Positions 3,742 through 20,724 of a stretch of DNA of 24,000 nt are shown here, piece after piece (the first letter of the stretch is position 1; each line of letters starts with the position of its first letter). Made by a program: the position numbers and the translations under genes. The notes beneath the pieces are model-generated. The model saw only the letters and a program-made list of their open reading frames with translations. It was not told where the DNA came from and made no database searches. Source of the DNA: Aquificaceae bacterium (GTDB taxonomy: Bacteria; Aquificota; Aquificia; Aquificales; Aquificaceae); NCBI GenBank assembly GCA_027079305.1, contig JALWVU010000030.1:23922-47921 (forward strand), in the 5' to 3' direction.

Positions 3742-5442
3742 GAACTCCCTTATGGCCCTGCCTATGTCCGTCCTCGCTATTATCCCAACGAGCCTTCTGC
3801 TTCCCTTCTTGTCTACGACGGGTAGGCGTCCCACGCCCTTGGAGGTCATAAGCCTGAAGGCCTCCGCGAGGGTGGTCTCCGGGGTAACGGTGAGGAGATC
3901 GGTGCTCATGACCTCGTGAACCTTCCTGTCCTTTCTCTCGTGAGGAGGAACAGCCATCACGTCGCTCTTGGTTATTATCCCCACCAGCTTGCCTCCGTTC
4001 ACAACGGGCAGGCCCCCTATAAGGTTGTCCATCATCAATCTGTAGGCCTCCTCCACCGAGTCGTAGGGCCTGACGGTTATGGGCTCGCCCATGTAGTCTT
4101 TGACCTTCAGCTTCTCGAGGATCATAAGGCCCCACTCCTCCATGTGGGCGGGAGAGTCGAGACGGGTGTCCACCTGGCTGGGGAAGACACTTCTCTTACC
4201 GCTCAGGAAGTAGGAAATGGAGACGGAGACCATCGCGGGGACAAGAAGCTCGTAGCCTCCCGTCATCTCCGCTATGAGGATAAGGGTGGAGAGGGGAGCC
4301 TTGGCCGCCCCCGCAAAGAGGGAGACCATCCCCACTATGGTGAAGGAGGGCACGTGAAGGGAGAGGGAGTGGTGCTGATTCAGGGTCATGCTGTAGGCCG
4401 CTCCCACGAGCCCGCCTATCATCACCGAGGGACCGAAAACTCCTCCCGAGCCCCCCGATCCGAGGGTGAAGGAGACTCCCAGCATGACCGCAACTGCGCC
4501 GAGAACTATGAAGCCAAGATCCGTGAGCTTACCGTCCATTATGAGCTGGAGCCAGCCGTAGCCGTTCCCGATGGAAATGGGGATAAAGGCTCCCACGAGT
4601 CCGGCCAGAAAGCCTCCGAGGGCCGGCTTTATGTACTGGGGAACTCTGGGCTTTTTGAACTCCTCCTGCACCTTGAAGAAGAGGAAGGTGAAGACTCGGA
4701 CAACGAGGGCGCAGAGGAGGCCGAGCCCTGCGTAGGCCAGGAGGGAGGCAGGCTGGAGGTTCAAGAGCTTGGGTATCTCCGCGGAGAATATGGGCTGGAA
4801 GCCGAAGAACATTCCGAAGACGCTGTAGGAGGTAACGGAAGCTATGAAACCCGGGATCAGGGCTTCTATCTCGAAGTCCCTTTTGAAGAACACCTCCGCG
4901 CTGATTATGGCTCCCGCGAGGGGTGCCTTGAATATGGCCGCTATCCCCGCACCGAGGCCCACCGCGAGGGCGGTCCTCCTCTCCCTCCGGTCGAGTCTGA
5001 AGAGTTCTCCCACGGTCGAGCCTATCCCGGCACCTATGAGGGCTATGGGCCCTTCCCTTCCCGATGTTCCCCCCGTTCCTATGGTTATGGCGGAGGTTAT
5101 GAGCTTCACTATGGAGGATTTTATCGAGAGCTTATCCTTGCTGTGGTAAGCCCTTATGGCTGAGTCCGTCCCGACTCCCGCGGATTCGGGGGAGAGGAGG
5201 TATGTGAGAAGCCCTGAGATAAGTCCGCCGAGGGCAACGGTCAGGGGAAGGAGGTAGGGCCTCTCCGGGTAAAAGGTGAAGTTCTCCCTCGTGCCCTCCC
5301 CCGCGGGAAGGGGCTGGACGTATCCCACCGCAAGCTCCAGGACGTAGCGGGTTATTAGCTCTATGGCGTGGACGAAGAGGACAGCGGAGATTCCCGTGAG
5401 GACTCCTATGAGGATGGGCAGGAGGAGGTATCTTTTGAACAT
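3733..5442 (-). CDS. ClC-family chloride channel / H+-Cl- antiporter with a C-terminal CBS pair
   Basis: Selectivity-filter motifs GTSGREGP and GGVFGPS in a multi-TM hydrophobic body, plus two CBS-like repeats at the C-terminus (VRPYDSVEEAYRLM...GGLPVV, VTPETTLAEAFRLM...GRLPVV). The 3' end overlaps the ATPase gene by 9 nt. Confidence 0.92.
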   Translation of the reverse strand: MFKRYLLLPILIGVLTGISAVLFVHAIELITRYVLELAVGYVQPLPAGEGTRENFTFYPERPYLLPLTVALGGLISGLLTYLLSPESAGVGTDSAIRAYHSKDKLSIKSSIVKLITSAITIGTGGTSGREGPIALIGAGIGSTVGELFRLDRRERRTALAVGLGAGIAAIFKAPLAGAIISAEVFFKRDFEIEALIPGFIASVTSYSVFGMFFGFQPIFSAEIPKLLNLQPASLLAYAGLGLLCALVVRVFTFLFFKVQEEFKKPRVPQYIKPALGGFLAGLVGAFIPISIGNGYGWLQLIMDGKLTDLGFIVLGAVAVMLGVSFTLGSGGSGGVFGPSVMIGGLVGAAYSMTLNQHHSLSLHVPSFTIVGMVSLFAGAAKAPLSTLILIAEMTGGYELLVPAMVSVSISYFLSGKRSVFPSQVDTRLDSPAHMEEWGLMILEKLKVKDYMGEPITVRPYDSVEEAYRLMMDNLIGGLPVVNGGKLVGIITKSDVMAVPPHERKDRKVHEVMSTDLLTVTPETTLAEAFRLMTSKGVGRLPVVDKKGSRRLVGIIARTDIGRAIREFSA

Positions 5443-5460
5443 AAGTTAGAATTTTAACGG

Positions 5461-6531
5461 ATGCTGGAGATAGACGGCTCTCACGGAGAAGGCGGGGGCC
5501 AGGTGGTCAGAACCTGTCTGTTCCTCAGCACCGTTCTGAAGATCCCCGCGAGGATAAAGAATGTGAGGGTAAAGAGGGAGAGGCCCGGCCTCAGGAGACA
5601 GCACCTTCACATAATCAGGCTTCTCAAAAAGCTCGCCTCCGCGGAGGTCGAGGGGGACACCTTGGGCTCTACGGAGCTTACCTACGTTCCCGGTGAGCTG
5701 AGGCCGGGGAGCTACAGCGTTGACTTCGGAAGCGCGGGATCTATAAGCCTCTTCCTCCAGGCGGTTCTCCCCGTTTCCCTCTTCGTTCCCGGAAAGGTTG
5801 AGATAGAGATAGTGGGAGGGACGGAGGTTCCCATGAGTCCCACCGTAGACTGGGTCAGGTTCGTCTACCTTCCCCATATATCGGGGGTTGCCAGGTTCGT
5901 GAGGATAGAGGTGGTCAGAAGGGGCTACCGTCCCGCAGGAGGAGGTCTTGTAAGACTCACCGCGGAAGGCGGTCCTTCCGAAGAACTAAAGGATTTAAAA
6001 TCGGTGAGGGAGTTTTTAAAAGGGAGGCTAAGCCTTTTTAAAAGGAGGAGGGGGGAGATTAAAAGGCTCCACCTCCTCTCGGTGGCGGAGGAGAGGCTGA
6101 GGGAGAGGAGGGTTGTGGAGAGGCAGGTCAAAGGCGCTCTCGATCTCCTGAGGGAAAAGGGTCTTCCCGAGCCGGAGGTCTACAGGCAGTACGTGAAGAG
6201 CTTCTCCATAGGGACGAGCGTGACCATGTGGCTCGAGGACACGGAGGGGAACATAATGGGTGCGGACAGTCTGGGCGAGAAGGGAAAGCCCGCGGAGACC
6301 GTCGGAGGCGAGTGTGCCCAGAAGCTCTGGGAGGACTGGAGCTCTGGGGCGACGGTGGACAGACACCTGGCGGACCACCTCGTTCCCTGGCTGGGTCTTG
6401 CGGGAGGTTCTGTCAGGGTTCCCCTCTTTACGGGACATTTAGAGACGAACATCTGGGTCTGCGAGAGATTCCTGGGCGATGGGACCTTCAGGGTGGTGAG
6501 GGAGGAGGGGATCGTGGAGGCTGTGGTATAA
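5461..6531 (+). CDS. rtcA: RNA 3'-terminal phosphate cyclase (RtcA)
   Basis: N-terminal [31 protein letters not shown] and C-terminal [13 protein letters not shown] are characteristic of RtcA. The length of 356 aa fits. Confidence 0.92.
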
Positions 6532-6539
6532 TCTGGTAA

Positions 6540-9500
6540 ATGGAGATCATCGAAGTCCCCATAGAGGAAGAGGTAAAGCAGTCCTACATAGACTACGCCA
6601 TGTCCGTCATAGTGGGGAGGGCGATCCCCGACGTCAGAGACGGCCTCAAGCCCGTCCAGAGAAGGATACTCTACGCGATGTATGAGATGGGGCTCACTCC
6701 CGATAAGCCCTTCAAGAAGAGCGCGAGGATAGTGGGGGAGTGCTTCGTAAGGGGAACCAAGGTGGTTACCTCCGAAGGGATAAAGAACATAGAGGAGGTG
6801 GAGAGGGGCGATCTGGTTTACACTTCGAGAGGATTGAAGAGAGTTTCGGAGCTTTACGTTATGCCTCCCCAGCCCCTGAAGGAGGTGGTGGTCGATACGG
6901 GCCTGTCGGTAAGATGCACTCCTGGCCAGATGTTCAAGGTTCTGACTCCGGAAGGTGATCTGGTATGGAGGAGGGCCAAGGATCTTAAGGAGGGCGATTT
7001 CCTTCTGCTTAGGGGTGTCTTCCCTGAAGTGGAGAGCAGGATCAAGGTAGAAGGTGTGGAGATAGACGAGAGTCTTGCCTACCTGATAGGCCTGCTGGTC
7101 GGCGACGGCTGGGTTGAGAAAGACAGGCGTGGATACCACAGGGTGGGGCTGTTTATCTCGGACAAAAGGATGAGGGAGAGGGTAGAGAGTATACTTTCTT
7201 CGAAAGGCTTCAGCTTTTCGAGGTCCAAGGACGGCACCGTAAGACTCAACTCAAGAAACTCAAGGACCATCATCAGGATCCTCGAGGCGGATGAGAATCT
7301 AAGCGCAAAGACGAAAAGGATCCCGAGCTGGGTGTTTAAAGCTGATAGGGGGACGGTTCTGGCCTTTGTCTCCGGACTCATAGACTCAGACGGAAGCGTT
7401 CACAAGAGCAGGAACGTTATTACCTTCACTTCCGTCTCGAAGGAGCTTATCAGGGACCTTCAGATCCTCCTCTTCTACCTCGGCATCCCGGCCAGGGTCT
7501 ACACTCAGAGACCTAAGGGTAACAAGATCGGAGGAAGGGAAATAAGACCTAACTACGATACTCACACTCTCGAGATATCGGGACACTATGTGTTGAAGAT
7601 CTTCGCCTCTCCCGTATTGCCCGTTAAAGCGGAGCGCTTGTGCGGGGAAAGGATAACCAAGAGGGTTAAGGCGGATGTGGTGCCTTACATAGGAGGCCTG
7701 TTGCTGAAGGAGTTTTCAGAGAAACATATCGGAGGGGGCTGGTATCTTACGTCGGAAGGTAAAAAAGTTAGGTGCGGTATAAGGTATCCAACAGGAACGA
7801 AGATAAGGTATTCTGCGGATCTGAAGGAGAGGTTTATCCTCTACAAAACAGCTCTGGAAGACCTGAACATCTTAAATAAGGCCGAGCTCGTAGGCTCGAG
7901 GTATGCGAGGCTGCTGAAAGATACACTGGATAAGGGCTGGTTCTTCCTCAGGGTAAAGGAAGTTAAAGACGCTCCTCCCGAGGAGACCTACGACATACAG
8001 GTTGAGGAGGATCACGAGTTTCTGGCTAACGGCTTTGTAGTCCACAACTGCCTCGGAAAGTATCATCCCCACGGGGATCAGGCGGTCTACGACGCCCTCG
8101 TCAGGATGGCCCAGGATTTCTCCATGAGGTATCCCCTCATAATCGGGCAGGGGAACTACGGCTCGGTGGACGGGGACCCGCCGGCCCAGATGAGATACTG
8201 CGTAACGGAGGGCTCCCTCGTCCTGACGAAGAGGGGCCTAATCCCGATCGAGTCCATAGTTCCCGATTCTAAGGACTCCTCGGAGCACGAGATAGATCTG
8301 GAGGTTCTGTCTTTAAACGGGAAGATCAACAGAGCGGACAGATTCTTCAACTCGGGAAAGCATCCCACAATAAAGGTAAGGACCGCCACGGGTCTCGAGA
8401 TAGAGGGGAGCTACAACCATCCCCTTTTAACTCTCGTCAGAGGGGAAGGGGGCAGGCCCACCTACAGGTGGAAGACACTTGAGGAGCTACGGGAGGGGGA
8501 CTACATCGTTGTTGCCAGAGACTCTCAGCTCTTCCCCGATGAGGATCTCATAACGGAGGAGGAGGCCTTCCTTTTGGGAAGCTTCGTTAGTGAGGGATAC
8601 ATAAACGATGGAAGGGTTGGATTTTCTAATGTGAATACAGAGTTTGTGGAAGAGTTCGAAAGGTGTCTCTCGAAAGCTCATGCAGGTTCCTACTGCGCTT
8701 ACGAAAGAAAGCTAAGGAGCGGGAAAACGATAACCGAGTTCCAGATACACAGCAGAGAGTTTATAGAGCGCATAAAGGATCTTGGCTTCAACCACAAGGC
8801 TGGGGAGAAGGAGATCCCTCAGGTGGTCCTGAGATCCTCTAAAAGGGTCCAGAGGGCTTTCCTGAGGGCGCTCTTTGAAGGAGACGGGAGCGTAAGCAAG
8901 GTGGGCCAAACTGTTCTGGTCTTTTACCACTCCAAGAGCCTGAAGCTTATAAAACAGCTCCAGATAGTTCTCCTTAACTTCGGGATAGTGAGCAGGATCC
9001 ACAGGGACAGACATATATACAGGCTTCTGATAAGCGGTGCACACAACCTCAAGAAGTTCTCCGAAGAAATAGGCTTCGTAAGCGAGAAGCAGAAGAAGCT
9101 TGAAGAGTATCTGAAGGACTACGGAAAAGCCCTCAGCAGAACGGACAGGATACCTTTCCTATCGGAATACCTGAGAAGAAAATACAGGTTCAGGTTCAAC
9201 GAGTGGTTCGTAAAGCACAACCTCGACAGATACGAGAGCCTGGAAAGGTATATGCACGTCCTTGAAAAATACTTAGATGAAGAGGATCTAAGGCACGTAA
9301 AGGAGCTTCTCAGGAACAGGTACTTCTTCGATCAGGTTGTCTCCAAGGAGTTCGGGGGATACAAGACAGTCTACTCTATAAGGGTTCAGAGCAGGTGCCA
9401 CTCCTTCGTGGCTAACGGGATAATAAACCACAACACCGAAGCCAAGCTCTCCAAGATTGCGGTCGAGATGCTCGAGGACATAGACAAAGAAACGGTAGAC

Positions 9501-11426
9501 TTCGTCCCCAACTTCGACGAGTCCCTCACGGAGCCCACGGTCCTCCCCTCTAAGTTCCCCAACCTCCTCTGCAACGGGACCGCGGGTATAGCGGTGGGGC
9601 TGGCGACCTCCATACCACCCCATAACCTGAGGGAGGTGGGGAAGGCCCTGATAGAGCTTGCCAAGAACCCCAACATGACCACCGAGGAGATCCTCCAGAT
9701 CATAAAGGGCCCTGACTTCCCCACGGGAGGGGTTGTGGAGAACGCCAAGGACCTTAAGGAGATCTACGAGACGGGGAGGGGAACGATACAGGTCAAGGCC
9801 AAGGCCCACGTGGAGAAGGTCCAGGGGGGAAGGGAGCAGATCGTGGTCTCGGAGATCCCCTACCAGGTGAACAAGGCGGAGCTCATAAAGAAGATAGCGG
9901 ACAACGTGAGAAGCGGGAGGCTCAAGGAGATCTCGGACATAAGGGACGAGTCGGACAAGGAGGGGATAAGGATAGTCATAGAGCTCAAGAGGGAGGCAAA
10001 GGGGGAGAAGGTCCTGAAAAAACTCTTCAAATACACCCAGCTCAGGAAAGGCTTTCCCGTTAACCTTGTGGTCCTCGTGAACGGGGAGCCGAAGCTGGTG
10101 GGCATAAAGGAGCTTCTGAGGGAGTTCATAAGGCACAGGCTCGAGGTTATCCTGAGGAGAACCAGGTTCTTCCTGAGAAAGGCGGAGGACAGGCTCCACG
10201 TGGTTCAGGGGCTCCTGATAGCGATAAACAACCTGGACGAGGTGATAGAGGGGATAAGGAAATCAAAGGATCCCGCGGAAGCGAGGGATATGCTCCAGGC
10301 GCGCTTCGGTCTGACCGAGAGGCAGGCCCAGGCGGTTCTGGATCTCAGGCTCCACAGGCTCACCTCCCTCGAGAGGGACAGACTAAGGCAGGAGGAGGCG
10401 GATCTGCTCCAGAAGATCGATTACTACCGAAAGGTGATAGGTAGCGAGGAGGAGAGGATAAGGATCTTTATAGAGGAGACGCAGGAGCTTGTAAAGAAAT
10501 ACGGAGATCCCAGGAGGACTTTCATAGAGGGCCTCGAAGGAGAGCTGGAGGAGGGATCCCTTGTGGTCACCGTATTGGAGAACGGGAAGGTAATTCCCCT
10601 CGAAGAGATGCCCGAGGGCGAGGCTCCCGTTGTGGACATCCTCGACGTTCCCTTCACCGAAGGTCTTTTCCTGGTCTCCAACAGGGGAAGGGTCTACTGG
10701 CTGGCGGGCTCTCAGGCCCTGAGGGGTAGCAGGGTCCACTTCAAGGAGTCTGAAGAGAGGATAGTGGGGGCCTTCATAAGGGAGCAGTTCGCGGACAGGC
10801 TTCTCCTCGCCACCAGAAACGGGATGATAAAGAAGATCCCCCTCGTTGAGTTCGAATACAAGGCCCAGGGGATGAGGATAATAAAGCTGGCTGAGGACGA
10901 CGAGGTGGTGGGCATAGCCCAGTCCATAGATATGAGCGACGTCCTCGTCTTCACCAGAAGAGGTAAGGTGGCCAGGTTCAACGTGAGGGAGATACCTCCC
11001 GCCACCCCCGGGACCAAGGGGGCCCAGGGCATAAAGCTCGAGGAGAGCGACGAGGTGGTGGGGATAAGGATAATCAGGGAAGAGCCCTTCCTGATAGTGG
11101 TGACGCCCGACGGGAAGGCCAAGAGGATATACCAGGAAGAGGTTCCCGTCAGGAACAGGGGAGTAAAAGGGGTTGGTGTTCTCGGCTCTGCGAGGGAGAG
11201 GTTGATAGACCTGCTTCCCATAAAGGAAGAGCTCGAGGTGTTGGTGAGCACCAAGCTCGGTAAGGCCTTTTACGACAGGATAAGGGCCGGGGACGTCCCC
11301 CTCACCAAGAGGGACAGGCTCGCCAGGCCCAGGTGGGATCTGGAGGAGGGAGACGAGATCAGGAGGGTCGTTATAAAGTCCGAGGTAAAAGAGGATGAGG
11401 AGAGTCAGAATTCTGATCAAGCCTAA
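6540..11426 (+). CDS. gyrA: Type IIA topoisomerase subunit A (GyrA/ParC family) precursor interrupted by two inteins; predicted spliced product 780 aa
   Basis: Exteins match GyrA closely: [32 protein letters not shown], [10 protein letters not shown], [45 protein letters not shown]. The 1628-aa ORF is about twice normal GyrA length, and the excess is explained by two intein insertions. Confidence 0.95.
6741..8048 (+). mobile_element. Intein 1 (436 aa) with a LAGLIDADG homing-endonuclease domain, inserted just upstream of the GKYHPHGD helix
   Basis: Begins with Cys ([10 protein letters not shown]) right after ARIVGE. Ends in VVHN followed by +1 Cys ([10 protein letters not shown]). Two dodecapeptide motifs are present: [14 protein letters not shown] and [14 protein letters not shown]. 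Removing it restores a contiguous GyrA sequence. Confidence 0.9.
8199..9434 (+). mobile_element. Intein 2 (412 aa) with a LAGLIDADG endonuclease domain, inserted immediately after the catalytic Tyr (MRY|C...HN|TEA), the site used by mycobacterial GyrA inteins
   Basis: Starts [13 protein letters not shown] and ends [10 protein letters not shown] with +1 Thr. Block B is [10 protein letters not shown]. Dodecapeptide motifs are [12 protein letters not shown] and [12 protein letters not shown]. Long stretches resemble the M. xenopi GyrA intein as I recall it (IDLxVL...ADRxFxSGxHP...VRT..GL...G...NHPLL.LV). Confidence 0.93.
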
Positions 11427-11616: not shown

Positions 11617-12299
11617 TGAGGTTTGCGGTATGCGTCTTCCCCGGATCCAACTGCGACTACGACACCTACTACGTTATAAGGGACGTTCTGGAAAAGGAGG
11701 TGGACTTCGTCTTCCACGACCAGAGGGATCTCTCCAAATACGACTGTGTGGTCCTTCCGGGAGGCTTCTCTTACGGAGATTATCTCAGACCCGGAGCCCT
11801 GGCATCTAAGAGTCCCCTCGCGGAGGCTGTGGCTGAGTTTGCGAGCAGGGGAAAACTCGTTCTGGGAATATGCAACGGTTTTCAGATCCTGACCGAGCTC
11901 CACCTACTCCCGGGCGCTCTCCTTCCGAACCTGAGCATGAGGTTCGTCTGCAAAGATGTCCACCTCAGAGTCGAGAACGGGAACACCCCTCTCACAAAGA
12001 AGCTCGAAGAGGGGGAGATCCTCAGGATTCCCATAGCCCACCACGACGGCAGATACTACGTTCCCAAAAAAGAGCTGAAGGATATGGAAGAAAGGGGCCA
12101 GATCCTCTTCAGATACGTGGACGGGGAGGGAAATCCTACCGATGAAGCCAATCCGAACGGGTCCGTTTCCAACATAGCAGGTGTTATGAACAGGGAGGGA
12201 AACGTCTTCGGTATGATGCCCCATCCGGAGAGGGCCTCCGAGGACATACTGGGAAGCCATGACGGCCTTATGCTGTGGTATTCTCTAATTAGTGATTGA
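11616..12299 (+). CDS. purQ: Phosphoribosylformylglycinamidine synthase glutaminase subunit PurQ
   Basis: FPGSNCDYD, the nucleophile elbow GICNGFQIL and MMPHPER (class I amidotransferase triad). The start overlaps the purS stop (TGATG). Confidence 0.95.
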   Translation: MRFAVCVFPGSNCDYDTYYVIRDVLEKEVDFVFHDQRDLSKYDCVVLPGGFSYGDYLRPGALASKSPLAEAVAEFASRGKLVLGICNGFQILTELHLLPGALLPNLSMRFVCKDVHLRVENGNTPLTKKLEEGEILRIPIAHHDGRYYVPKKELKDMEERGQILFRYVDGEGNPTDEANPNGSVSNIAGVMNREGNVFGMMPHPERASEDILGSHDGLMLWYSLISD

Positions 12300-13389
12300 G
12301 GTAAGCCTCGTAAAGGAAGCTGTAAAGCAGAGGAAGGCCCGCTCCGAGGAGTTCCTGGGGCTTGAATACCTGAGGTTTTCAGACGACTACAAAGACATTC
12401 CCAGAGGAACCGCCGTATTCCAGGACACGGTGGTGTGGGGATACCCCCACATAGGAAGGATATTCATGCTCGAGAAAGGAATCAGAGAGCAGTTCAAGAA
12501 TCCCTTCTGGGTTGAGGAGAAGGTGGACGGCTACAACGTGAGGATATTTAAGGTTGGGGACAGGGTGATCGCCCTGTCCAGGGGAGGATACCTCTGCCCC
12601 TTCACCATAGACAGGCTTCCCGAGTTCATAAACTTAGAGTTCTTTGAGGAGAACCCCGACTTCGTCCTCTGTGCGGAGGTGGCTGGCCCCGAGAACCCCT
12701 ACATAGAGGAGAGCCCCCCCTTCGTTAAGGAGGACATCAAGATCTTCGTCTTCGACATAATGAGGAAGAACGAGCAGGGCTTTTTAAGTCAGGAGGAGAA
12801 GCTGAAGCTCATAGAAAAGTACTCCCTTCCGAGCGTGGAGGTCTTCGGGAGGTTCACCCACGAGGATGTAGACAGGCTCAAGAAACTGCTTATAGAGCTG
12901 AACGAGGAGGGAAGGGAAGGGGTGGTTCTCAAGGAGGACTCGGAGGAGAACAGGAGGGCCAAGTATATCACCAGCTACGCCAACCTGAGCGACATAAAGG
13001 TTACCACCAAAAACATGCTCCAGCTACCTCCCGAATACTACACCAACAGGATACTCAGGCTCGTCCTCTTCATGGAGGAGGAGGGGATAGAGAGGACGGA
13101 GCACCTTTACGAGGAGCTGGGAAGGGCCTTCATAGACGGCCTCTTCGAAGCCATAGAGCAGTTCAAAAGGGAGCACAAGGTATACAGGACCTTCAGATGC
13201 AGGTTCAGGAAGAAAGAAAACGCCCTGGCTCTGATGGAGCTTCTCCACAGAACCTCCAGGCACATACAGGTGGTCCAGAGGGATCTGAGGGAGGAAAAGG
13301 GCTACTGGGTCCTTACCTTCGACAAGATCTTTCTCAACATGACGGGACTTCTGGGACACCTACTCGGTGGCGGGCTTGTGTTTGATTAG
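12292..13389 (+). CDS. ATP-dependent RNA ligase, Pab1020/Rnl3-type
   Basis: Nucleotidyltransferase motifs are in order: [10 protein letters not shown] (motif I, KxDG), ALSRGGY, CAEVAG, IFVFDI, EGVVLKE, RRAKYIT. The GTG start at 12292 overlaps the purQ stop by 8 nt. Family assignment is from recalled motif patterns. Confidence 0.85.
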
Positions 13390-13956
13390 GCCCTCCAGGA
13401 TCCCCTTGAAGTTCCTCGGATCTATAAGCTTTATCCCCACCTTGTCCGCCCACTTCCTGAGACCCTCGTCCGCGGTGACTATCACCCCGTCCAGCTCGTA
13501 GGCTAGAAGCAGAACGTCCACGTCCTCCCTGCTGTCTATTATCCCCTGCCTGAGTGCTTCTCTATACTTCTCCCTCAGTCTGCTCACCACCTTACCCACG
13601 TCCTCCTCCGCCAGCTTCCCCGCCTCCTTGGTGTGCTCCTCGGCGATCCTGAGGCCCTTGTTTATCCTCTGCCTTATCTCCTCTATAAGCTCGTAGAGGA
13701 TCTCGCTCGGTATCATTAGAGAGTATTTCCTCGGGGATCTGATCCTGACCACCATCTCGAACTCGGGAGCCAGGTGCCTGAGGTCCACCATCTTGAGCAT
13801 CTCGTCGTAGACGGAGGTGGGCATGTAGAAGCTTGCCCCAGAGTGTATGGCCAGATGTATGAAGTTCTCTATGGCCCCCAGCTGGTCCTTTTCACCGAAG
13901 GTCTGGTAAACGTCCGGGTTGGTGAATACGCTCGTGTCCAGAACGAAGCTCTCCAT
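13360..13956 (-). CDS. PIN-domain protein of the RNA-ligase-partner (MJ_0950-like) type
   Basis: PIN signatures: N-terminal FVLDTSVF and C-terminal [22 protein letters not shown]. It is adjacent and convergent to the Pab1020-type ligase, a pairing I recall from archaea and Aquifex. The 3' ends overlap by 30 nt. Confidence 0.8.
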
Positions 13957-14025: not shown

Positions 14026-15393
14026 ATGGTCAGCATACTGGTTGTGGAGGACGACGAGAGCCTGAGTTCCCTCATAGGGAGAAAATTGAAGAGGAAGGGC
14101 TTCAGGGTTGATGCGGTCGGAAGCGGTGAGGAAGCCAAAGAGCTTATAGAAAAAGGAAACTACGACGTGGTCCTTCTGGATATAAAACTCTCGGATATGA
14201 ACGGCCTCGACCTTCTTAAAGAGATTTCGGGGAGGACCAATGCCAAGTTCATAGTGATAACGGGATATGGGGATGTAAGCACCGCGGTGGAGGCCATGAA
14301 AGCGGGAGCGTCAGACTTCATCCAGAAACCCTTCTCCTTCGACATCCTGGAGGTAAGCATAGAGAAGGCCCTTAAAGAGAAGCGTCTCGAGGAAGAGAAC
14401 AAAGCTCTCAAGAGCTTCCTCTTCGACAAGGAGCACGAGATAGTCCTCGAGACCAGAAGTCCCCTCTTTAAAAACATACTTCAGATGATAGAGGGAGCGG
14501 CCAGAAGTGACATAAACATACTTCTGAGAGGGGAGACGGGAACGGGTAAGGAGGTCCTCGCCAGATACATCCACAGGATATCTGACAGAAGGGATAAGCC
14601 CTTCATCGTGGTGGACTGCGGGGCCATACCCGAGCACCTCTTCGAGAGCGAGCTATTCGGCCACGAGAGAGGGGCCTACACGGGAGCCACGAGTAGGAAG
14701 CTGGGTCTGGTGGAGCTTGCGGACGGAGGGACGCTCTTTCTGGACGAGATAGGGGAGATACCCCTGCCCGTTCAGGCTAAACTCCTGAGGTTCGTGGAGA
14801 CGAGGAGGTTCAGGAGGGTGGGAGGCCTCAAGGAACACAGGGTGGACGTGAGGATAATCTCCGCCACCAACAGGGATCTTAAGGAGATGGTGAGGAAGGG
14901 AGAGTTCAGGAGCGATCTTCTTTACAGGATAAACACCTTTGAGGTGGAGATACCGCCCCTGAGGGAAAGGAAGGAGGACATTCCCCTTCTTGTAGAAACC
15001 TTTCTGAGGAGATACAGGAAGAGGATCAAAAAGGAGACACTCAAAAAGCTCACGGCCTACGACTGGCCGGGGAACGTAAGGGAGCTAAGAAACGCTATAG
15101 AGAGGGCTTCGCTCCTTTCTAAAGGAGAGTATATAGACGAGAACCTCTGCCTTCCTTCGGGGGAGAGCAAGGAAGCCTGCATGGAAAATATCTTCTCCGC
15201 TATGCCCTCCCTGAAAGATCTCGAACTTCTCTACACCGCCTACCTATACAGGAAGCTGGGAAGTGTGGACAAGGTTGCTAAGGTGCTGGGGTGTAGCAGG
15301 AGGACCGTTTTCAGAAAGCTCAGAGAACTAAGAGAGAGGAATGGAAACTTTGAAGGTAGCCCCTTCTCCCAACTTGGTGTCCACAGAGATTGA
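14026..15393 (+). CDS. Sigma-54-dependent two-component response regulator (NtrC family): receiver + AAA+ + Fis-type HTH
   Basis: Receiver domain (ILVVEDDE...VVLLDIKLSDMNG). AAA+ domain with Walker A GETGTGKE, the sigma-54 contact loop ESELFGHERGAYTGA (GAFTGA variant) and DEIGEIP. C-terminal HTH is VAKVLGCSRRTVFRKLRE. Confidence 0.93.
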   Translation: MVSILVVEDDESLSSLIGRKLKRKGFRVDAVGSGEEAKELIEKGNYDVVLLDIKLSDMNGLDLLKEISGRTNAKFIVITGYGDVSTAVEAMKAGASDFIQKPFSFDILEVSIEKALKEKRLEEENKALKSFLFDKEHEIVLETRSPLFKNILQMIEGAARSDINILLRGETGTGKEVLARYIHRISDRRDKPFIVVDCGAIPEHLFESELFGHERGAYTGATSRKLGLVELADGGTLFLDEIGEIPLPVQAKLLRFVETRRFRRVGGLKEHRVDVRIISATNRDLKEMVRKGEFRSDLLYRINTFEVEIPPLRERKEDIPLLVETFLRRYRKRIKKETLKKLTAYDWPGNVRELRNAIERASLLSKGEYIDENLCLPSGESKEACMENIFSAMPSLKDLELLYTAYLYRKLGSVDKVAKVLGCSRRTVFRKLRELRERNGNFEGSPFSQLGVHRD

Positions 15394-16347
15394 GCCACCG
15401 TACTCTCTCACTATACTGTCCACGATAGCAAGACCAAGGCCAGAGCCTTCTTTCTTGTTCTTTCCCTGATAGAAAGGTATGAATATCTTACTGAGCTCCT
15501 CCTGATCTATCCCCGGGCCCCTGTCACTCACCTCGAGAACCCACCTGCCCTCTTCGTTGTAAAGCTTGACCTCCACCTTCTCCCCCGGAGGAGAAGCCTG
15601 AACCGCGTTCAGGACGAGGTTGAGAACGAGGTGCCTTATGTCCGCTTCGTTCCCCATCTGGTAGCCCACCTCTTCGAGGTCCGTTTCTATCTTCACACCC
15701 TTCTCCTTCGCGTATATCCTTAAGATGTCTACCGAGTCTTCTACAGCCTTTCTCACGTTCACAAGATCTTTGGTGGAGTTTCTCTTGACGAGGAATAAGA
15801 GCTTATCCACATAGTCCCTGCAGGTTTTTACAGCGTTCCTTATGGTTTCTATCTCCTCAGAGCTCCCCACCTTCTCCTCCAGCTCCTCAAGAGCAAGCAG
15901 GATGGTGCTGAGGGGGGTGTTTATCTGATGGGCTACACCCAGAGCGAGAAATCCCACAGAACTTAGCCTCTGAGCCAGACTGAAGAGGTAGTACTTCTCC
16001 TTGTCGCTCTTTATATCCCTTATTATCTGAACTATCTTTTCCCCGTTCTCTATGGGAAAGGCGCATATCTCTACGGGAACTTCCCTGTTGTCGTGGGTGT
16101 AGTGGGTGTGAACCACGTTCACAGATCTTCCCGTCCTCTCTATCTCCTTCAAGGGACAGGGATGGCACTCCCCTTCACAGGGCTTTGTCTGATGATGGGA
16201 GACAACGTAGCAGAAGTTGCCTATGACCTCTTTGGGATCTTTGTATCCGAGATCCTTGGCGTACTTTTCGTTAGCGTAGACTATCCTGTAGTTTTTGTCT
16301 ATTATGACAACCTCTTCTTCAAACTGGTCGAATACGGAGAAGTCCAT
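15328..16347 (-). CDS. Soluble sensor histidine kinase with an N-terminal Cys-rich PAS domain
   Basis: No hydrophobic TM segment. PAS-like N-terminus (VVIIDKNYRIVYANEKYAKDLGY) carries C-x10-C-x3-C-x2-C. H-box is GVAHQINTPLS. The HATPase_c domain has N/G boxes (LVLNAVQA, DRGPGI, GSGLGLAIV). The 3' end overlaps the regulator gene by 66 nt. Confidence 0.9.
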   Translation of the reverse strand: MDFSVFDQFEEEVVIIDKNYRIVYANEKYAKDLGYKDPKEVIGNFCYVVSHHQTKPCEGECHPCPLKEIERTGRSVNVVHTHYTHDNREVPVEICAFPIENGEKIVQIIRDIKSDKEKYYLFSLAQRLSSVGFLALGVAHQINTPLSTILLALEELEEKVGSSEEIETIRNAVKTCRDYVDKLLFLVKRNSTKDLVNVRKAVEDSVDILRIYAKEKGVKIETDLEEVGYQMGNEADIRHLVLNLVLNAVQASPPGEKVEVKLYNEEGRWVLEVSDRGPGIDQEELSKIFIPFYQGKNKKEGSGLGLAIVDSIVREYGGSISVDTKLGEGATFKVSIPLS

Positions 16348-16384
16348 GGGGGTAAATTTACTGTTCCCTCTGGAAAATGGTAGC

Positions 16385-16420
16385 TGTCATAGATGTCTCT
16401 CGGGGTGTCAGATGTGTCAC
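16385..16420. promoter_or_regulatory. Tandem repeat pair, candidate enhancer (UAS) for the sigma-54 activator
   Basis: TGTCATAGATGTCTC (16385-16399) and TGTCAGATGTGTCAC (16406-16420). TGTC cores start at 16385, 16394, 16406 and 16415 (spacing 9/12/9, so the pairs are 21 bp apart). The repeats lie about 60-90 bp upstream of the sigma-54 -24 element, in the divergent intergenic region. Confidence 0.4.
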
Positions 16421-16476
16421 TGAAAATTAAAGTATGCCCCTTCCCGAGTTATTTGATATGTAGGAGTTTTGAGTTA

Positions 16477-16492
16477 TGGCATGAATTTTGCT
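16477..16492 (+). promoter_or_regulatory. Sigma-54 (-24/-12) promoter for the flavoprotein-Rieske-flavoprotein operon
   Basis: TGGCAT-GAATT-TTGCT matches the TGGCAC-N5-TTGCW consensus with exact spacing. It lies about 40 nt upstream of ATG 16533, next to a sigma-54 activator gene. Confidence 0.7.
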
Positions 16493-16532
16493 AAACATTG
16501 AAAACGAGAAAAACTCAATGGAGGGTGCAAAG

Positions 16533-17837
16533 ATGGAAGTGAGCAGGAGAGACCTGCTAAAGGTAGCGGGAGTGGGAGCGGCGGTAGCCGCAACAAGTGG
16601 AGCTACAAGCTTTACCTTTGCCAAAAGTGTGGATACCATCAACCTTCCCAAGCCCTCGAGAGGTTCCGCGAGGGTAGTTATAGTCGGAGGCGGATGGTCA
16701 GGATCCACGCTTGCCAAATACATTAAGAAGAAGGATCCAAACATAGACGTGGTCCTTATCGAAAAAAACAACGTGTTCATGTCCTGCCCGGTGAGTAACC
16801 TCTGGCTTGTTGACCTCGTAGATCTCGAGTTCCTCATTCATGACCACCTGAAAGCCGCGGACAAGTACGGATACCACTTCATCAACGCGGAGGTCCACGA
16901 CGTTGATAGAAAAAGAAGATACGTCTATACAAGCATAGGCAAGATACATTATGACTACCTCGTTCTCGCTACCGGAATAGACTACGACTACTCCCAGTGG
17001 GTGGGGGACGATCCGAAGGACATAGAGATAGCGATGAAGAAGTATCCCGCAGCCTTCAAACCCGGAGAGGAGCACTTCAGACTGAAAAGAAAGATACAGG
17101 ACTTCGAGGAAGGAAACTTCGTAATAACAGTTCCTCCCGGACTCGACTACAGATGTCTGCCAGGGCCTTACGAAAGGGCTACCATGATAGCCTGGTATTT
17201 CAAGCAGAACGAGATACCTGGAAAGGTTATCCTTCTCGATCCACACAACGATCCACCGGTCAAGGCGGAAGGCTTCCACAAGGCATGGGATGAGTTTGTT
17301 AAGGGATATGTGGAGTACTACCCTCAGACTCAGATAAAGCATGTGGATTTTGGAAAGAAAAGGATAGTTACCAATCTTGGAGACTTCGAGTTTGATGATC
17401 TCAACCTATACCCGAGATGTAAGTCCGCACCTCTCGTTTATAAACTCGGGCTGGTGCCCAAGGGGGACAGATGGCCCTCCCTCAAATGGCCCTGGTACAT
17501 GTCCACAGTGGACGAAAGGATATTCTGCACAGGGGATGCAAGGAACCATCCTTTCTCCAAGAGCGGAAACACCGCCAACTCGGAAGCTCACAACGTTGCG
17601 GAGCTTATCGTAACCTTGATACACGGAAAGAGCATGCCCTACAAACCTCCCAGAACCCTCTGTTACTCCGGGGTGGACAAAGGTAAGGCGGTCTGGGTAG
17701 ATCTGACCTACAAATACGATCCTAAAAAGAACAGCTTTGCCTTCCACAACGTTAAGATGGACAACAATCCTTCTTCTAAAAACTGGAAGGCTTACCTCGA
17801 ATGGGCCAAGGCTATGTACAGAGACATGTTCAGCTGA
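16533..17837 (+). CDS. Tat-exported FCSD/FccB-family FAD flavoprotein, paralog 1 (sulfide-dehydrogenase-like)
   Basis: Twin-arginine signal MEVSRRDLLKVAGVGAAVAA. Dinucleotide fold VVIVGGGWSGSTLAKY. FccB-type motifs MSCPVSN, YRCLPGPYERA and SKSGNTANSEA. Start chosen at ATG 16533 (GGAGGG 7 nt upstream) because the track's TTG 16488 lies inside the -12 promoter element. Confidence 0.85.
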   Translation: MEVSRRDLLKVAGVGAAVAATSGATSFTFAKSVDTINLPKPSRGSARVVIVGGGWSGSTLAKYIKKKDPNIDVVLIEKNNVFMSCPVSNLWLVDLVDLEFLIHDHLKAADKYGYHFINAEVHDVDRKRRYVYTSIGKIHYDYLVLATGIDYDYSQWVGDDPKDIEIAMKKYPAAFKPGEEHFRLKRKIQDFEEGNFVITVPPGLDYRCLPGPYERATMIAWYFKQNEIPGKVILLDPHNDPPVKAEGFHKAWDEFVKGYVEYYPQTQIKHVDFGKKRIVTNLGDFEFDDLNLYPRCKSAPLVYKLGLVPKGDRWPSLKWPWYMSTVDERIFCTGDARNHPFSKSGNTANSEAHNVAELIVTLIHGKSMPYKPPRTLCYSGVDKGKAVWVDLTYKYDPKKNSFAFHNVKMDNNPSSKNWKAYLEWAKAMYRDMFS

Positions 17838-17848
17838 CGGAGGAAAGT

Positions 17849-18565
17849 ATGGACAGGAGGGGTTTCATAAAGACGTGCACTGCCGTTGCCGCCGCTTCCC
17901 TCGCTTCCCCCTCCTTTTTTATAAGCTCCTTGAGGGCACAGGAGGTAGAGTTCAAAGCCTACAAAAAAGCTATCCTTCTGAAGAAGGACGGAACGCCTCT
18001 TAGACCTGAGGATATAGATCCGGGGAAGCAATACATTTTCTTTTATCCCCATAGGGCTACACCCTGCATACTGGCAAACCTTGGAAAGGAAGTTCCGCCC
18101 GCGGATGTAAAGCTATCCGATGGAACCACCTACAGATGGCCCGGGGGAGTTGGACCGAAAAAGAGCATAGTAGCCTACTGTGCAATATGTCCCCATCAGA
18201 TGAGTTATCCTACGCCGGAATACTCTTTCATCAATTACTATCCCGAGAATATCCTTTCCAAGATAGTCAAGAGAGGAGGGGTGATCCAGTGCTGTGCGCA
18301 CCTTTCTGTTTTCGATCCCGCAAAGGGAGGAGAGGTTATAGACGGACCTGCTCCCCAACCGCTCACCGCCATAGTCCTAAAATACGAAGGCGGTAAACTC
18401 TACGCTGTAGGGACACTGGGAAAGGAACTTTACGAGGACTTCTTCGATGTTTTTAAACCTGACCTCAGGAAACTTTACAAGTCCTCGAGGAAGGCTAAGA
18501 AGCTTGTGGACAAGTGTGAGGTTGTAGAGGTGGAAGAGTATGCAAAAGAGGTCATCAGGTGTTAG
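17849..18565 (+). CDS. Tat-exported Rieske-type [2Fe-2S] protein
   Basis: Twin-arginine signal MDRRGFIKTCTAVAAASLA. Rieske ligand boxes are CPH (in YCAICPHQ) and CCAH, followed by LSVFDPAKGGEVIDGPAPQPL, typical of the Rieske fold. Start moved to ATG 17849 (GGAGG 5 nt upstream). Confidence 0.8.
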   Translation: MDRRGFIKTCTAVAAASLASPSFFISSLRAQEVEFKAYKKAILLKKDGTPLRPEDIDPGKQYIFFYPHRATPCILANLGKEVPPADVKLSDGTTYRWPGGVGPKKSIVAYCAICPHQMSYPTPEYSFINYYPENILSKIVKRGGVIQCCAHLSVFDPAKGGEVIDGPAPQPLTAIVLKYEGGKLYAVGTLGKELYEDFFDVFKPDLRKLYKSSRKAKKLVDKCEVVEVEEYAKEVIRC

Positions 18566-19805
18566 CAGGAGAGGGCTTTTGGCCCTGGGAGGAGTTCTTC
18601 TCGCGAGCGGTGTAATAGCTAAAAGCACTTCAAGGTTGCTTCCTCCCTCTAAGGGGAACAGGGTAGTTATAGTAGGGGGAGGCTACGGAGGTGTTACCGC
18701 GGCCAAATACATAAAAAAGGAAAATTCAGACGCGGAAGTCGTGCTTATAGAGAAGAACCAGCTCTTCGTATCCTGCCCTCTGAGCAATCATTATCTTGTA
18801 GGGCTTATAGATTACGGTCAGTTATGCTTTCCCTACAACAGACTCCATACCAAATACGGTGTTAAGGTTATAAACGATGTGGTAGTAGATATAGATCTCC
18901 CCAAAAGGAGAGTATACCTATCGGACGGCTACGTTGATTACGATTACCTTATTCTTTCACCGGGTATAGAGTATGACACCGAGGAGTTTCCCTTCTACGA
19001 GGAAACCACCTGGTTCTTTCCGGGTGCCTTCAGGCCGGGGAGTGAACATCTATACCTGAGAAGACTTCTCGAGGAGTTCGAAGGTGAGAGCATAGTTATA
19101 ACGGTTCCCAGGATGCCCTACAGGTGTCCTCCCGCTCCTTACGAGAGGGCGTCTCTGATCCTCAGCTATATAAGGGAAAACGGCCTTAAAGCCCATATGT
19201 ATTTTCTTGACGCGAACGAGTATCCCCCCGTTCTTAGGGATGGCTTCATGAAGGCTTACGAGGACTTTTACAGGGGAATGGCCACCTACATAACCGGAGT
19301 TCGAATAAAGGATGTAGACGTAGCTTCGAGGAAGATAAAGACAAACAAAGGAGATGTAAGGTTTGATTTCGGATCGATAATACCGCCCATGAGAGCACCC
19401 AAACTCCTTGAGAGAATAGGCCTGATATACGGAAGGGAAAAGTGGGTAAGAGTAGATCCCATGACCTTTGAGACCAAGGTCAAAAACGTTTTTGTGATAG
19501 GGGACTCCTGTGAGTCCTATCTCCCCAAAAGCGGATACGCCGCTAACTCTCAGGCTAAGGTCGTCGCCAGGATAGTTTCAAGCAGAATAAAAGGTAAGGA
19601 ATTTGGGGGAGAGCTTATCCAGCACGGTGTCTGCTACGCCATGGTGAACTTAAAGTCCGCCATAATGCTCGAGGTGGAATACAAATACAATGTAAGAACT
19701 AAACAGATAAACAAGATCCTCAGGGAGGATAACACCTGGAAAGTTTCTACCGCCAAGAGATACTATGAGTGGGCGAGGGGTCTGTGGAGGGATATGTTCT
19801 TCTGA
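18540..19805 (+). CDS. Tat-exported FCSD/FccB-family FAD flavoprotein, paralog 2
   Basis: Twin-arginine signal SRRGLLALGGVLLASG. VVIVGGGYGGVTAAKY, VSCPLSN, YRCPPAPYERA, VIGDSCESYLPKSGYAANSQAKV. It aligns with paralog 1 along its whole length, including the shared C-terminal EWA+xx+RDMF motif. The start overlaps the Rieske gene by 26 nt, with GAGGTGG upstream. Confidence 0.88.
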   Translation: MQKRSSGVSRRGLLALGGVLLASGVIAKSTSRLLPPSKGNRVVIVGGGYGGVTAAKYIKKENSDAEVVLIEKNQLFVSCPLSNHYLVGLIDYGQLCFPYNRLHTKYGVKVINDVVVDIDLPKRRVYLSDGYVDYDYLILSPGIEYDTEEFPFYEETTWFFPGAFRPGSEHLYLRRLLEEFEGESIVITVPRMPYRCPPAPYERASLILSYIRENGLKAHMYFLDANEYPPVLRDGFMKAYEDFYRGMATYITGVRIKDVDVASRKIKTNKGDVRFDFGSIIPPMRAPKLLERIGLIYGREKWVRVDPMTFETKVKNVFVIGDSCESYLPKSGYAANSQAKVVARIVSSRIKGKEFGGELIQHGVCYAMVNLKSAIMLEVEYKYNVRTKQINKILREDNTWKVSTAKRYYEWARGLWRDMFF

Positions 19806-19821
19806 GTGTAAAATCTTCTTG

Positions 19822-20724
19822 ATGGAAACCCTCGTAGGAAAGGCTAAGGTCCTGCATGAGGCCCTCCCCTACATAAGGGAGTTCCACGGAAAGGTATTCG
19901 TTATCAAATACGGCGGTTCCGCCATGACCAGGGAGGAGCTCAGGGAGTCCTTTGCCAAGGATGTGGTCCTTCTCAAATACGTGGGCATAAACGTTGTCAT
20001 AGTCCACGGGGGAGGTCCCCAGATAAGCACCACCCTAGAAAGATTCGGGATAAAGCCCAGATTCGTCGGAGGTATGAGGAAGACCGATGAGGAAACTATG
20101 CACGTGGTAGAGATGGTCCTCTCCGGAGACGTGAACAAGGACATCGTAGCCCTTATAAACAGGCACAGCGGTGAGAAGGTCTACGCGGTGGGTATCTCGG
20201 GTAGGGACGGCAGGCTCCTACGAGCTGTGAAGCTCAATAAGGAAAGATACTTCAGAGAGATAGGTCTACCGCCTCCCAGCGAGGACGTAGGCTACGTGGG
20301 GGAGATCGTGGGCGTGAACGTAGATCTTATAAACTCTCTCATAGAAAGAAACTTTATTCCCGTGATAGCTCCCGTGGGTGTGGGAGAGCAGGGGGAAGCC
20401 TACAACATCAACGCGGACATTGCAGCATCCGAGATAGCAAGGTATATAAAAGCTGAAAAGCTCATCTTCCTGACGGACACCGAGGGAGTTAAGGACGAAA
20501 AGGGAGAGCTTATATCGAGTCTCTCTGAAAGCAAGGCAAGAGAGCTTATAGAGAAGGGCGTAATAAGGGAAGGTATGATTCCCAAAGTAAAATCCGCTCT
20601 GAAGGCTTTGGAGAGTGGTGTCAGGAAGGTTCACATAATAGACGGCAGGATCCAGCACTCGCTCCTGCTGGAGATATTCACTCAGGAGGGTATCGGAACG
20701 GAGATAGTTCACTTGCAGACCTGA
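19822..20724 (+). CDS. argB: N-acetylglutamate kinase (ArgB)
   Basis: LHEALPYIREFHGKVFVIKYGGSAM, VVIVHGGGPQI, NINADIAASEIA, EGMIPKV. The start at ATG 19822 (METLVGK) is preferred over the upstream track start at 19765. Confidence 0.95.
   Translation: METLVGKAKVLHEALPYIREFHGKVFVIKYGGSAMTREELRESFAKDVVLLKYVGINVVIVHGGGPQISTTLERFGIKPRFVGGMRKTDEETMHVVEMVLSGDVNKDIVALINRHSGEKVYAVGISGRDGRLLRAVKLNKERYFREIGLPPPSEDVGYVGEIVGVNVDLINSLIERNFIPVIAPVGVGEQGEAYNINADIAASEIARYIKAEKLIFLTDTEGVKDEKGELISSLSESKARELIEKGVIREGMIPKVKSALKALESGVRKVHIIDGRIQHSLLLEIFTQEGIGTEIVHLQT

Follow-up and report, generated by a model that had tools for sequence, protein, structure and literature searches.

The dhsU operon of an Aquificaceae bacterium: two FccB-type flavoproteins, a Rieske protein and its possible role in periplasmic sulfide oxidation

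In vents, hot springs and sediments, genes for FccB-type enzymes are used as markers of sulfide oxidation, and a c-type cytochrome is generally taken to be the electron acceptor of these enzymes. A 24,000-nucleotide stretch of the genome of a hot-spring Aquificaceae bacterium (contig JALWVU010000030.1, positions 23,922 to 47,921; hereafter the window) raises the question of whether a Rieske [2Fe-2S] protein could take the place of the haem subunit of flavocytochrome c. The window encodes two FccB-type flavoproteins (FP1 and FP2) with a Rieske gene between them, behind a sigma-54 promoter and beside genes for a response regulator (RR) and a histidine kinase (HK) (Table 1). A preliminary description, made from this DNA alone, had proposed the genes as a candidate undescribed system. 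We show here that the same module is annotated in Aquifex aeolicus VF5, that the promoter of its dhsU gene is published and that the gene triad itself has been reported; the idea that remains of interest is the replacement of the haem subunit by a Rieske protein. Taken as a whole, the window probably contains the dhsU operon of Aquificaceae, an inducible module for periplasmic sulfide oxidation in which the Rieske protein would reoxidise FAD.

Relationship to the dhsU cluster of Aquifex aeolicus

The A. aeolicus VF5 locus (L083), reached through the kinase orthologue O66597, matches the window in all five genes and in their order and orientation. There too the regulator and kinase genes lie beside a flavoprotein–Rieske–flavoprotein operon, with the kinase gene divergent from it, and the intergenic region between the kinase and the first flavoprotein holds a sigma-54 promoter and paired dyads of the TGTCA type. 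Identity between the two loci is 63% for the RR (O66596, over 447 amino acids), 62% for the HK (O66597), 67% for the Rieske protein (O66599) and 65% for FP2 (O66600). The exception is the first flavoprotein: that of the window is 47% identical to aq_232 and comes from a different lineage of paralogues. In the source annotation aq_232 (O66598) is named 'Flavocytochrome C sulfide dehydrogenase', O66599 'Rieske-I iron sulfur protein' and O66600 'Sulfide dehydrogenase, flavoprotein subunit'. The dhsU genes have been in the catalogue since 1998, with the A. aeolicus genome; the locus tags aq_230 to aq_235 returned nothing relevant in the literature searched. Just past the regulator, A. aeolicus carries a gene for a molybdopterin-binding protein (MoCoBD_1/2) with a twin-arginine translocation (Tat) signal, at 10724–12886 of L083, which is without counterpart in the window.

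A second relative is the run of dhsU1, Rieske gene and dhsU2 in a Sulfurihydrogenibium-like 'large sausage-shaped bacterium', where the triad lies between a cytochrome gene and soxXYZAB (PMC3504083). Loci L021, L022 and L024 show the same layout; in these Hydrogenothermaceae a mono-haem cytochrome c gene stands before dhsU1 and the Rieske gene before dhsU2. Recombinant DhsU1 was a yellow monomeric flavoprotein that transferred electrons from sulfide to horse-heart cytochrome c with a Km of ~17 µM, and expression of DhsU2 failed (PMC3504083); both genes are transcribed in situ (PMC4912159). This cluster resembles the window in its flavoprotein–Rieske–flavoprotein order, its Tat signals, a 26-nt overlap of the second and third genes (in L021, L022 and L024) and its second flavoprotein (FP2 is 50% identical to DhsU2). 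It differs in the cytochrome gene before dhsU1 and soxXYZAB after the triad, in a non-orthologous kinase of 518 amino acids (25–27% identity), in a regulator of 44% identity and in DhsU1, which is 34% identical to FP1 of the window.

Because the five A. aeolicus genes match, the published dhsU promoter matches exactly (see below) and the triad is on record (PMC3504083), the system is not an undescribed one. By sequence comparison the window locus is an orthologue of the catalogued and partly characterised dhsU operon. The accompanying statement that no complex of a flavocytochrome c sulfide dehydrogenase flavoprotein with a Rieske protein has been characterised agrees with the full-text literature searched, in which we found none.

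The rest of the preliminary description of the gene content was borne out: an NtrC-type sigma-54 activator, a soluble Cys-rich PAS kinase, a near-consensus -24/-12 promoter and three genes, FccB-like, Rieske-type and FccB-like, that each encode a twin-arginine motif (SRRDLL in FP1, DRRGFI in the Rieske protein and SRRGLL in FP2). The RR and HK genes are convergent and overlap by 66 nt. GGAGG-type ribosome-binding sites precede the true starts of the operon genes; FP1 begins at 16533 and not at the TTG at 16488. The gap between FP1 and the Rieske gene is 11 nt and contains GGAGGA, and the Rieske and FP2 reading frames share 26 nt.

Table 1. Features of the dhsU locus in the 24-kb window
Feature	Position	Strand	Basis
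NtrC-type response regulator (RR)	14026–15393	+	REC, sigma-54 AAA+, Fis-type HTH
Soluble PAS histidine kinase (HK), 339 aa	15328–16347	-	PAS_9, HisKA, HATPase_c
Putative upstream activator site 1, TGTCATAGATGTCT	16385–16398	.	Dyad comparison
Putative upstream activator site 2, TGTCAGATGTGTCA	16406–16419	.	Dyad comparison
Sigma-54 -24/-12 promoter TGGCATGAATTTTGCT, TGGCAT-GAATT-TTGCT	16477–16492	+	Consensus match
Flavoprotein 1 (FP1), FccB-type FAD sulfide dehydrogenase homologue, 434 aa	16533–17837	+	FCSD_central, TAT_signal
Rieske [2Fe-2S] protein with Tat signal, 238 aa	17849–18565	+	Ligand motifs, AioB-like domain
Flavoprotein 2 (FP2), FccB-type FAD sulfide dehydrogenase homologue, 421 aa	18540–19805	+	FCSD_central

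Promoter, activator and kinase

In the 24 kb the consensus TGGCAY-N5-TTGCW is matched once, by the promoter TGGCATGAATTTTGCT, and none of 100 shuffled sequences gave a match. The A. aeolicus dhsU promoter, TGGCAC-GAAAA-TTGCA, occupies the same position, and the order found in the window (two dyads, -24/-12 elements, GGAGG, ATG) reproduces the architecture of that promoter. The dhsU oligonucleotide printed in PMC10083551 matches L083 exactly at 7861–7888, directly upstream of aq_232, and has no match in 81 other loci. In vitro the A. aeolicus dhsU promoter depends on sigma-N and gives transcripts only with a bacterial enhancer-binding protein (PMC10083551), and it has become a standard sigma-N model that is reused in cryo-EM and transcription work (PMC10083551, PMC12322047). 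The promoter literature examined does not identify the native activator, kinase or signal of this promoter. Testable candidates for native dhsU control are offered here by the conserved dyads and by the PAS kinase with its Cys/His-rich motif.

The upstream elements had been described as tandem repeats. They are real and kept across related loci; their form is that of imperfect 14-bp dyads resembling TGTCA-N4-TGACA (TGTCATAGATGTCT and TGTCAGATGTGTCA) and not of simple tandem repeats, and a repeat finder on its own reports just a weak 9-nt pair at these sites. The centre of site 1 lies ~110 bp upstream of the inferred transcription start site, and the two sites are spaced 21 bp apart, so that both would lie on one face of the helix. 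The pair is found again in seven related loci, and equivalent dyads occur in the same place in L001, L002, L004, L005, L014, L018, L082 and L083; Hydrogenobacter thermophilus is among the carriers. This recurrence argues that they are genuine, conserved activator sites, and we infer that the RR binds both.

Further sigma-54 elements are found at related loci. In the Hydrogenobacter-type loci L007, L008, L010 and L012 an extra consensus immediately precedes the Rieske gene (~5940–5957 in L008), accompanied by a different palindrome, TTGCAAC-N3-GTTGCAA. In the Hydrogenothermaceae loci L021, L022 and L024 a consensus lies upstream of soxX (~8046–8077).

The RR matches Response_reg (E = 1.6e-27), Sigma54_activat (2.5e-69) and HTH_8 (4.5e-4), and its loop at residue 216 reads GAYTGA in place of GAFTGA. 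The HK has no transmembrane or hydrophobic segment (maximum KD19 value 1.43). Its PAS domain has cysteines at 46, 57, 61 and 64 and carries the motif C-x4-H-x5-C-x3-CH-x-C, followed by HTHYTH (residues 45–64, at 16150–16215 on the minus strand, and residues 79–81), in which C45, H50, C56, C63, H79 and H81 are invariant among 18 homologues; the motif is mostly retained down to homologues at 34–37% identity. Its pattern suggests a sensor with a bound metal, a cluster or a reactive thiol. Orthologues of the HK with at least 57% identity belong to Aquificota wherever their source is named, the next matches fall to 37%, and the cluster P0241 is 100% identical to the window HK.

In its general plan this pair resembles NtrB/NtrC control of sigma-54 promoters: a REC-AAA+-HTH activator with a HisKA/HATPase kinase beside it, and a -24/-12 promoter with two sites upstream. 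The window differs from it in having a soluble, single-PAS kinase whose Cys/His motif is specific to this Aquificaceae kinase family, and in the GAYTGA loop.

The flavoproteins and the Rieske protein as possible partners

Both flavoproteins match FCSD_central (PF21706) in profile searches (E = 7.2e-24 for FP1, which also matches TAT_signal at 5.2e-5, and 1.2e-21 for FP2), and their scores against PF09242 (25.0 and 23.3 bits) lie just below the cut-off of 26. FccB chains in the PDB match them across E-values of 1e-41 to 1e-59 (FP1: 5N1T 3.5e-49, 1FCD 8.6e-45; FP2: 5N1T 1.5e-59, 3VRD 8e-51). The two are 38% identical to each other, in keeping with their proposed status as paralogues. In Allochromatium vinosum FccB, Cys42 carries the 8-alpha-S-cysteinyl FAD and Cys161 and Cys337 form the redox-active pair. 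All three have an aligned cysteine in FP1 and in FP2, in the contexts msCpvsn/vsCplsn, yrClpgpyera/yrCppapyera and tlCys/gvCya respectively. These conserved catalytic residues, together with the activity measured in the paralogue DhsU1, are the grounds for reading the locus as one for sulfide oxidation, and the function first proposed for it, inducible oxidation of sulfide in the periplasm, still appears probable.

Three flavoprotein lineages can be distinguished. That of FP2 always stands just after the Rieske gene, with at least 50% identity across Aquificota; the aq_232 type and the window FP1 type are two alternative upstream types. FP1 of the window groups with the lone FP1 of H. thermophilus (60% identity), so its 47% identity to aq_232 does not reflect orthology. 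In L002, the closest metagenome-assembled genome (Rieske protein 95% identical), both types are present in a four-gene operon at 3287–7957 behind one sigma-54 promoter, in the order aq_232-type flavoprotein (77% identical to aq_232), FP1 type, Rieske, FP2.

By comparison with FccAB of A. vinosum (1FCD), Thermochromatium (3VRD) and Thioalkalivibrio (5N1T), the window proteins share the flavoprotein fold and domains, the FAD-binding cysteine, the active-site cysteine pair and the periplasmic location. The window cluster differs in having two flavoprotein paralogues in place of one, and a Rieske gene in the neighbouring position without a gene for a haem subunit. As first described, no CxxCH protein is encoded in the cluster: there is no open reading frame (ORF) with this motif between 2504 and 24000, and the sole such ORF of the window, 12 kb away at 1383–2498 on the minus strand, encodes a di-haem cytochrome c peroxidase (CCP_MauG, E = 3.8e-61). 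The lack of a dedicated cytochrome subunit, the FccB-like sequence and the Tat signal are shared with monomeric flavoproteins of the SoxF type, from which FP1 and FP2 differ in not lying within a sox cluster; sox linkage is seen only in the Hydrogenothermaceae relatives.

The Rieske protein has the ligand motifs CPH...CCAH, and in an alignment of 109 homologues C114, H116 and C148 are invariant and a CxxH box is present, with two variants: in eight homologues, which are proteobacterial (e.g. P0088 and P0117), it reads CCSEKS and so is without the second His ligand, and in 19 it reads CCSEH, with the His displaced by one residue. No specific Pfam or NCBIfam family was found for the protein, and its database names are generic; it scores 92.9 against SoxL2 (cut-off 582), 50.0 against AioB (TIGR02694, cut-off 95.65) and 20.6 against bc1 QcrA (cut-off 275). 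Its AlphaFold2 model (pLDDT 90.7) is closest among solved structures to AioB (TMt 0.76–0.82) and to Sulfolobus Rieske II SoxF (1JM1), which also give the best matches by sequence (E ~1e-8 to 1e-9). With AioB, the Rieske subunit that passes electrons to cytochrome c or azurin, it shares a Tat-signal Rieske domain, the CxH...CxxH ligands, the fold and, following the second His, a Ser/Thr-x-Phe pattern. It differs from AioB in scoring below the NCBIfam cut-off and in an extra helical C-terminal extension of ~45 residues that ends in a cysteine (Cys238). It also differs from both AioB and Sulfolobus Rieske II in its neighbours, which are FccB-type flavoproteins and not a molybdopterin AioA or a cytochrome b partner; among the window ORFs no cytochrome b gene stands next to the Rieske gene.

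Three further cysteines, Cys10 in the signal peptide, Cys149 beside a cluster ligand and the C-terminal Cys238 (codons 17876–17878, 18293–18295 and 18560–18562), are each present in 103 of the 109 homologues. Cys149 and the C-terminal cysteine are jointly present in 103 and jointly absent in six, which may be one clade. A Cys149–Cys238 disulfide is plausible; the idea that the C-terminal cysteine acts as a SoxY-like sulfur carrier was set aside because its co-occurrence with Cys149 suits a disulfide. A reductive role, as a sulfur or polysulfide reductase, was rejected on general grounds: export takes the proteins into the periplasm, which is without NAD(P)H, and Rieske centres of the AioB-like type are of high potential.

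The best matches come from Hydrogenivirga and uncultured Aquificaceae, and Hydrogenivirga caldilitoris has the complete five-gene module in the same chromosomal neighbourhood. Relatives of the Rieske protein were found in at least 591 genomes in a scan of one genome per species, and an exhaustive profile search gave 145 clusters (50% identity) at E<=1e-30. Gene neighbourhoods were analysed by script at 81 loci, including 18 Aquificota loci with enough flanking sequence. An FccB-type gene adjoins the Rieske gene in 17 of these 18 and flanks it on both sides in 12. Nine other Aquificota loci, drawn from Aquificaceae as well as Hydrogenothermaceae, share the 26-nt overlap of the Rieske and FP2 frames. 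Hydrogenobacter L008 has a further sigma-54 promoter directly before Rieske-FP2, which marks the two genes as a separable unit and is the best comparative hint that FP2 may be the partner of the Rieske protein. In Campylobacterota the Rieske gene adjoins one FccB-like gene, and in 12 loci it occurs with a small CxxCH ORF, most of these 12 having the FccB-like gene as well. This ORF (6740–7171 in L074, and its equivalents in 11 further loci) is of ~143 amino acids with one C-terminal CxxCH and no Pfam match, and may be an unnamed cytochrome of the same electron path.

Conserved adjacency and the conserved overlap with FP2 favour a partner role, as do the L008 promoter, the gene order in Hydrogenothermaceae (the cytochrome gene before dhsU1, the Rieske gene before dhsU2), the Campylobacterota loci and the AioB-like fold. 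We put forward, tentatively and with a little less than even confidence, that an FccB-type flavoprotein, most likely FP2, could have the Rieske protein as a subunit dedicated to accepting its electrons one at a time. The two would form a flavo-Rieske sulfide dehydrogenase conserved in Aquificota and, with a small cytochrome, in Campylobacterota. If so, the route by which sulfide electrons enter the respiratory chain of these primary producers would have to be redrawn, and a second redox enzyme, beside arsenite oxidase, would be seen to use a soluble Rieske subunit.

In the proposed scheme a redox or sulfur signal would be sensed by the Cys/His-rich PAS domain of the HK, leading to phosphorylation of the activator, which would bind the dyads and open the sigma-54 complex. 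FP1, the Rieske protein and FP2 would be exported by the Tat pathway in folded form with their cofactors. Sulfide would then attack the active-site disulfide of a flavoprotein, giving sulfane sulfur and reduced FAD, and the Rieske centre, with FP2 as its most likely partner, would reoxidise the FAD one electron at a time and pass the electrons to a soluble c-type cytochrome and on to a terminal oxidase, both encoded elsewhere. The transfer from flavin to Rieske centre, drawn from gene linkage and from the function of AioB-type Rieske proteins, is the least certain of these steps.

Several observations weigh against this scheme. With regard to the assignment itself, FP1 of the window is an orthologue neither of the tested DhsU1 nor of aq_232; we found no paper in the full-text literature searched that demonstrates the Rieske protein as acceptor or partner of these flavoproteins; and the published dhsU transcription assays used E. 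coli holoenzyme with truncated NtrC1, which is another A. aeolicus activator (PMC10083551). The remainder bear on a rival that we regard as less likely, namely that the flavoproteins are self-sufficient, SoxF-like monomers that directly reduce soluble c-type cytochromes, with the Rieske protein not a subunit but a co-expressed, independent periplasmic carrier or in the service of another enzyme. Recombinant DhsU1, a monomer, needs no partner to reduce horse-heart cytochrome c (PMC3504083), but that assay is an artificial one and is silent on FP2. Each of the three proteins bears its own Tat signal, so that co-export as a complex is not required. H. thermophilus has the RR, HK, dyads, promoter and FP1 with no adjoining Rieske gene. 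Outside Aquificota, 32 of 46 loci have a Rieske homologue without an FccB-like neighbour, among them most of those in Burkholderiales and Gammaproteobacteria, and the Rieske protein is thus possibly a general periplasmic carrier. Clustering of the neighbours of the proteobacterial homologues yielded nothing beyond local groups of synteny and antisense ORFs of high GC content, and no common partner. Set against self-sufficient monomers are an FccB-type neighbour of the Rieske gene in all but one of the Aquificota loci, an FP2 overlap that is kept across two families and the sigma-54 unit that Rieske-FP2 forms in Hydrogenobacter.

A different reduced sulfur compound as the substrate of the triad, or a role in aid of the Sox pathway such as SoxF has in thiosulfate oxidation, seems improbable. 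Flavoproteins of the SoxF type enhance the in vitro oxidation of thiosulfate (cited in PMC3504083), and in Hydrogenothermaceae the triad lies directly upstream of soxXYZAB with a sigma-54 consensus before soxX. There is, however, no sox gene in the window or beside the A. aeolicus and H. caldilitoris copies, both flavoproteins retain the three catalytic cysteines of FccB, and the Km of DhsU1 is for sulfide (PMC3504083). A truly undescribed system, for which the generic database names of the Rieske protein and its scores below the SoxL2 and AioB cut-offs might speak, can be dismissed with near certainty, being refuted by the A. aeolicus VF5 annotation, the published promoter and the Sulfurihydrogenibium-like cluster.

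One Burkholderiales group (L029, L032, L049, L050, L054, L056, L062, L068, L075 and L080) has a Rieske homologue that stands alone, near a hemN-like gene, and several of its loci also encode a membrane protein with an HCxxMCGG motif; such a gene pair is known from cbb3-oxidase assembly regions.

Neighbouring genes in the window

The start of argB lies 17 nt past the stop codon of FP2 with no terminator-like site between them (19806–19830), and sigma-54 transcripts may therefore read into argB, a gene of arginine biosynthesis. The genes downstream of the module differ in H. caldilitoris, where they encode OmpA and ArgJ.

GyrA, encoded at 6540–11426 on the plus strand, is 1628 amino acids long and carries a pair of inteins that include endonuclease domains of the LAGLIDADG type (Pfam Intein_splicing twice, LAGLIDADG_3 three times, and Hom_end); the syntenic H. 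caldilitoris GyrA is of 781 amino acids and intein-free. Clustered around gyrA and purQ are genes for an RNA 3'-phosphate cyclase-like protein (5461–6531), a Pab1020-type RNA ligase (RNA_ligase and Lig_C; 12292–13389) and a PIN_5 ribonuclease (13360–13956), a set that H. caldilitoris has too.

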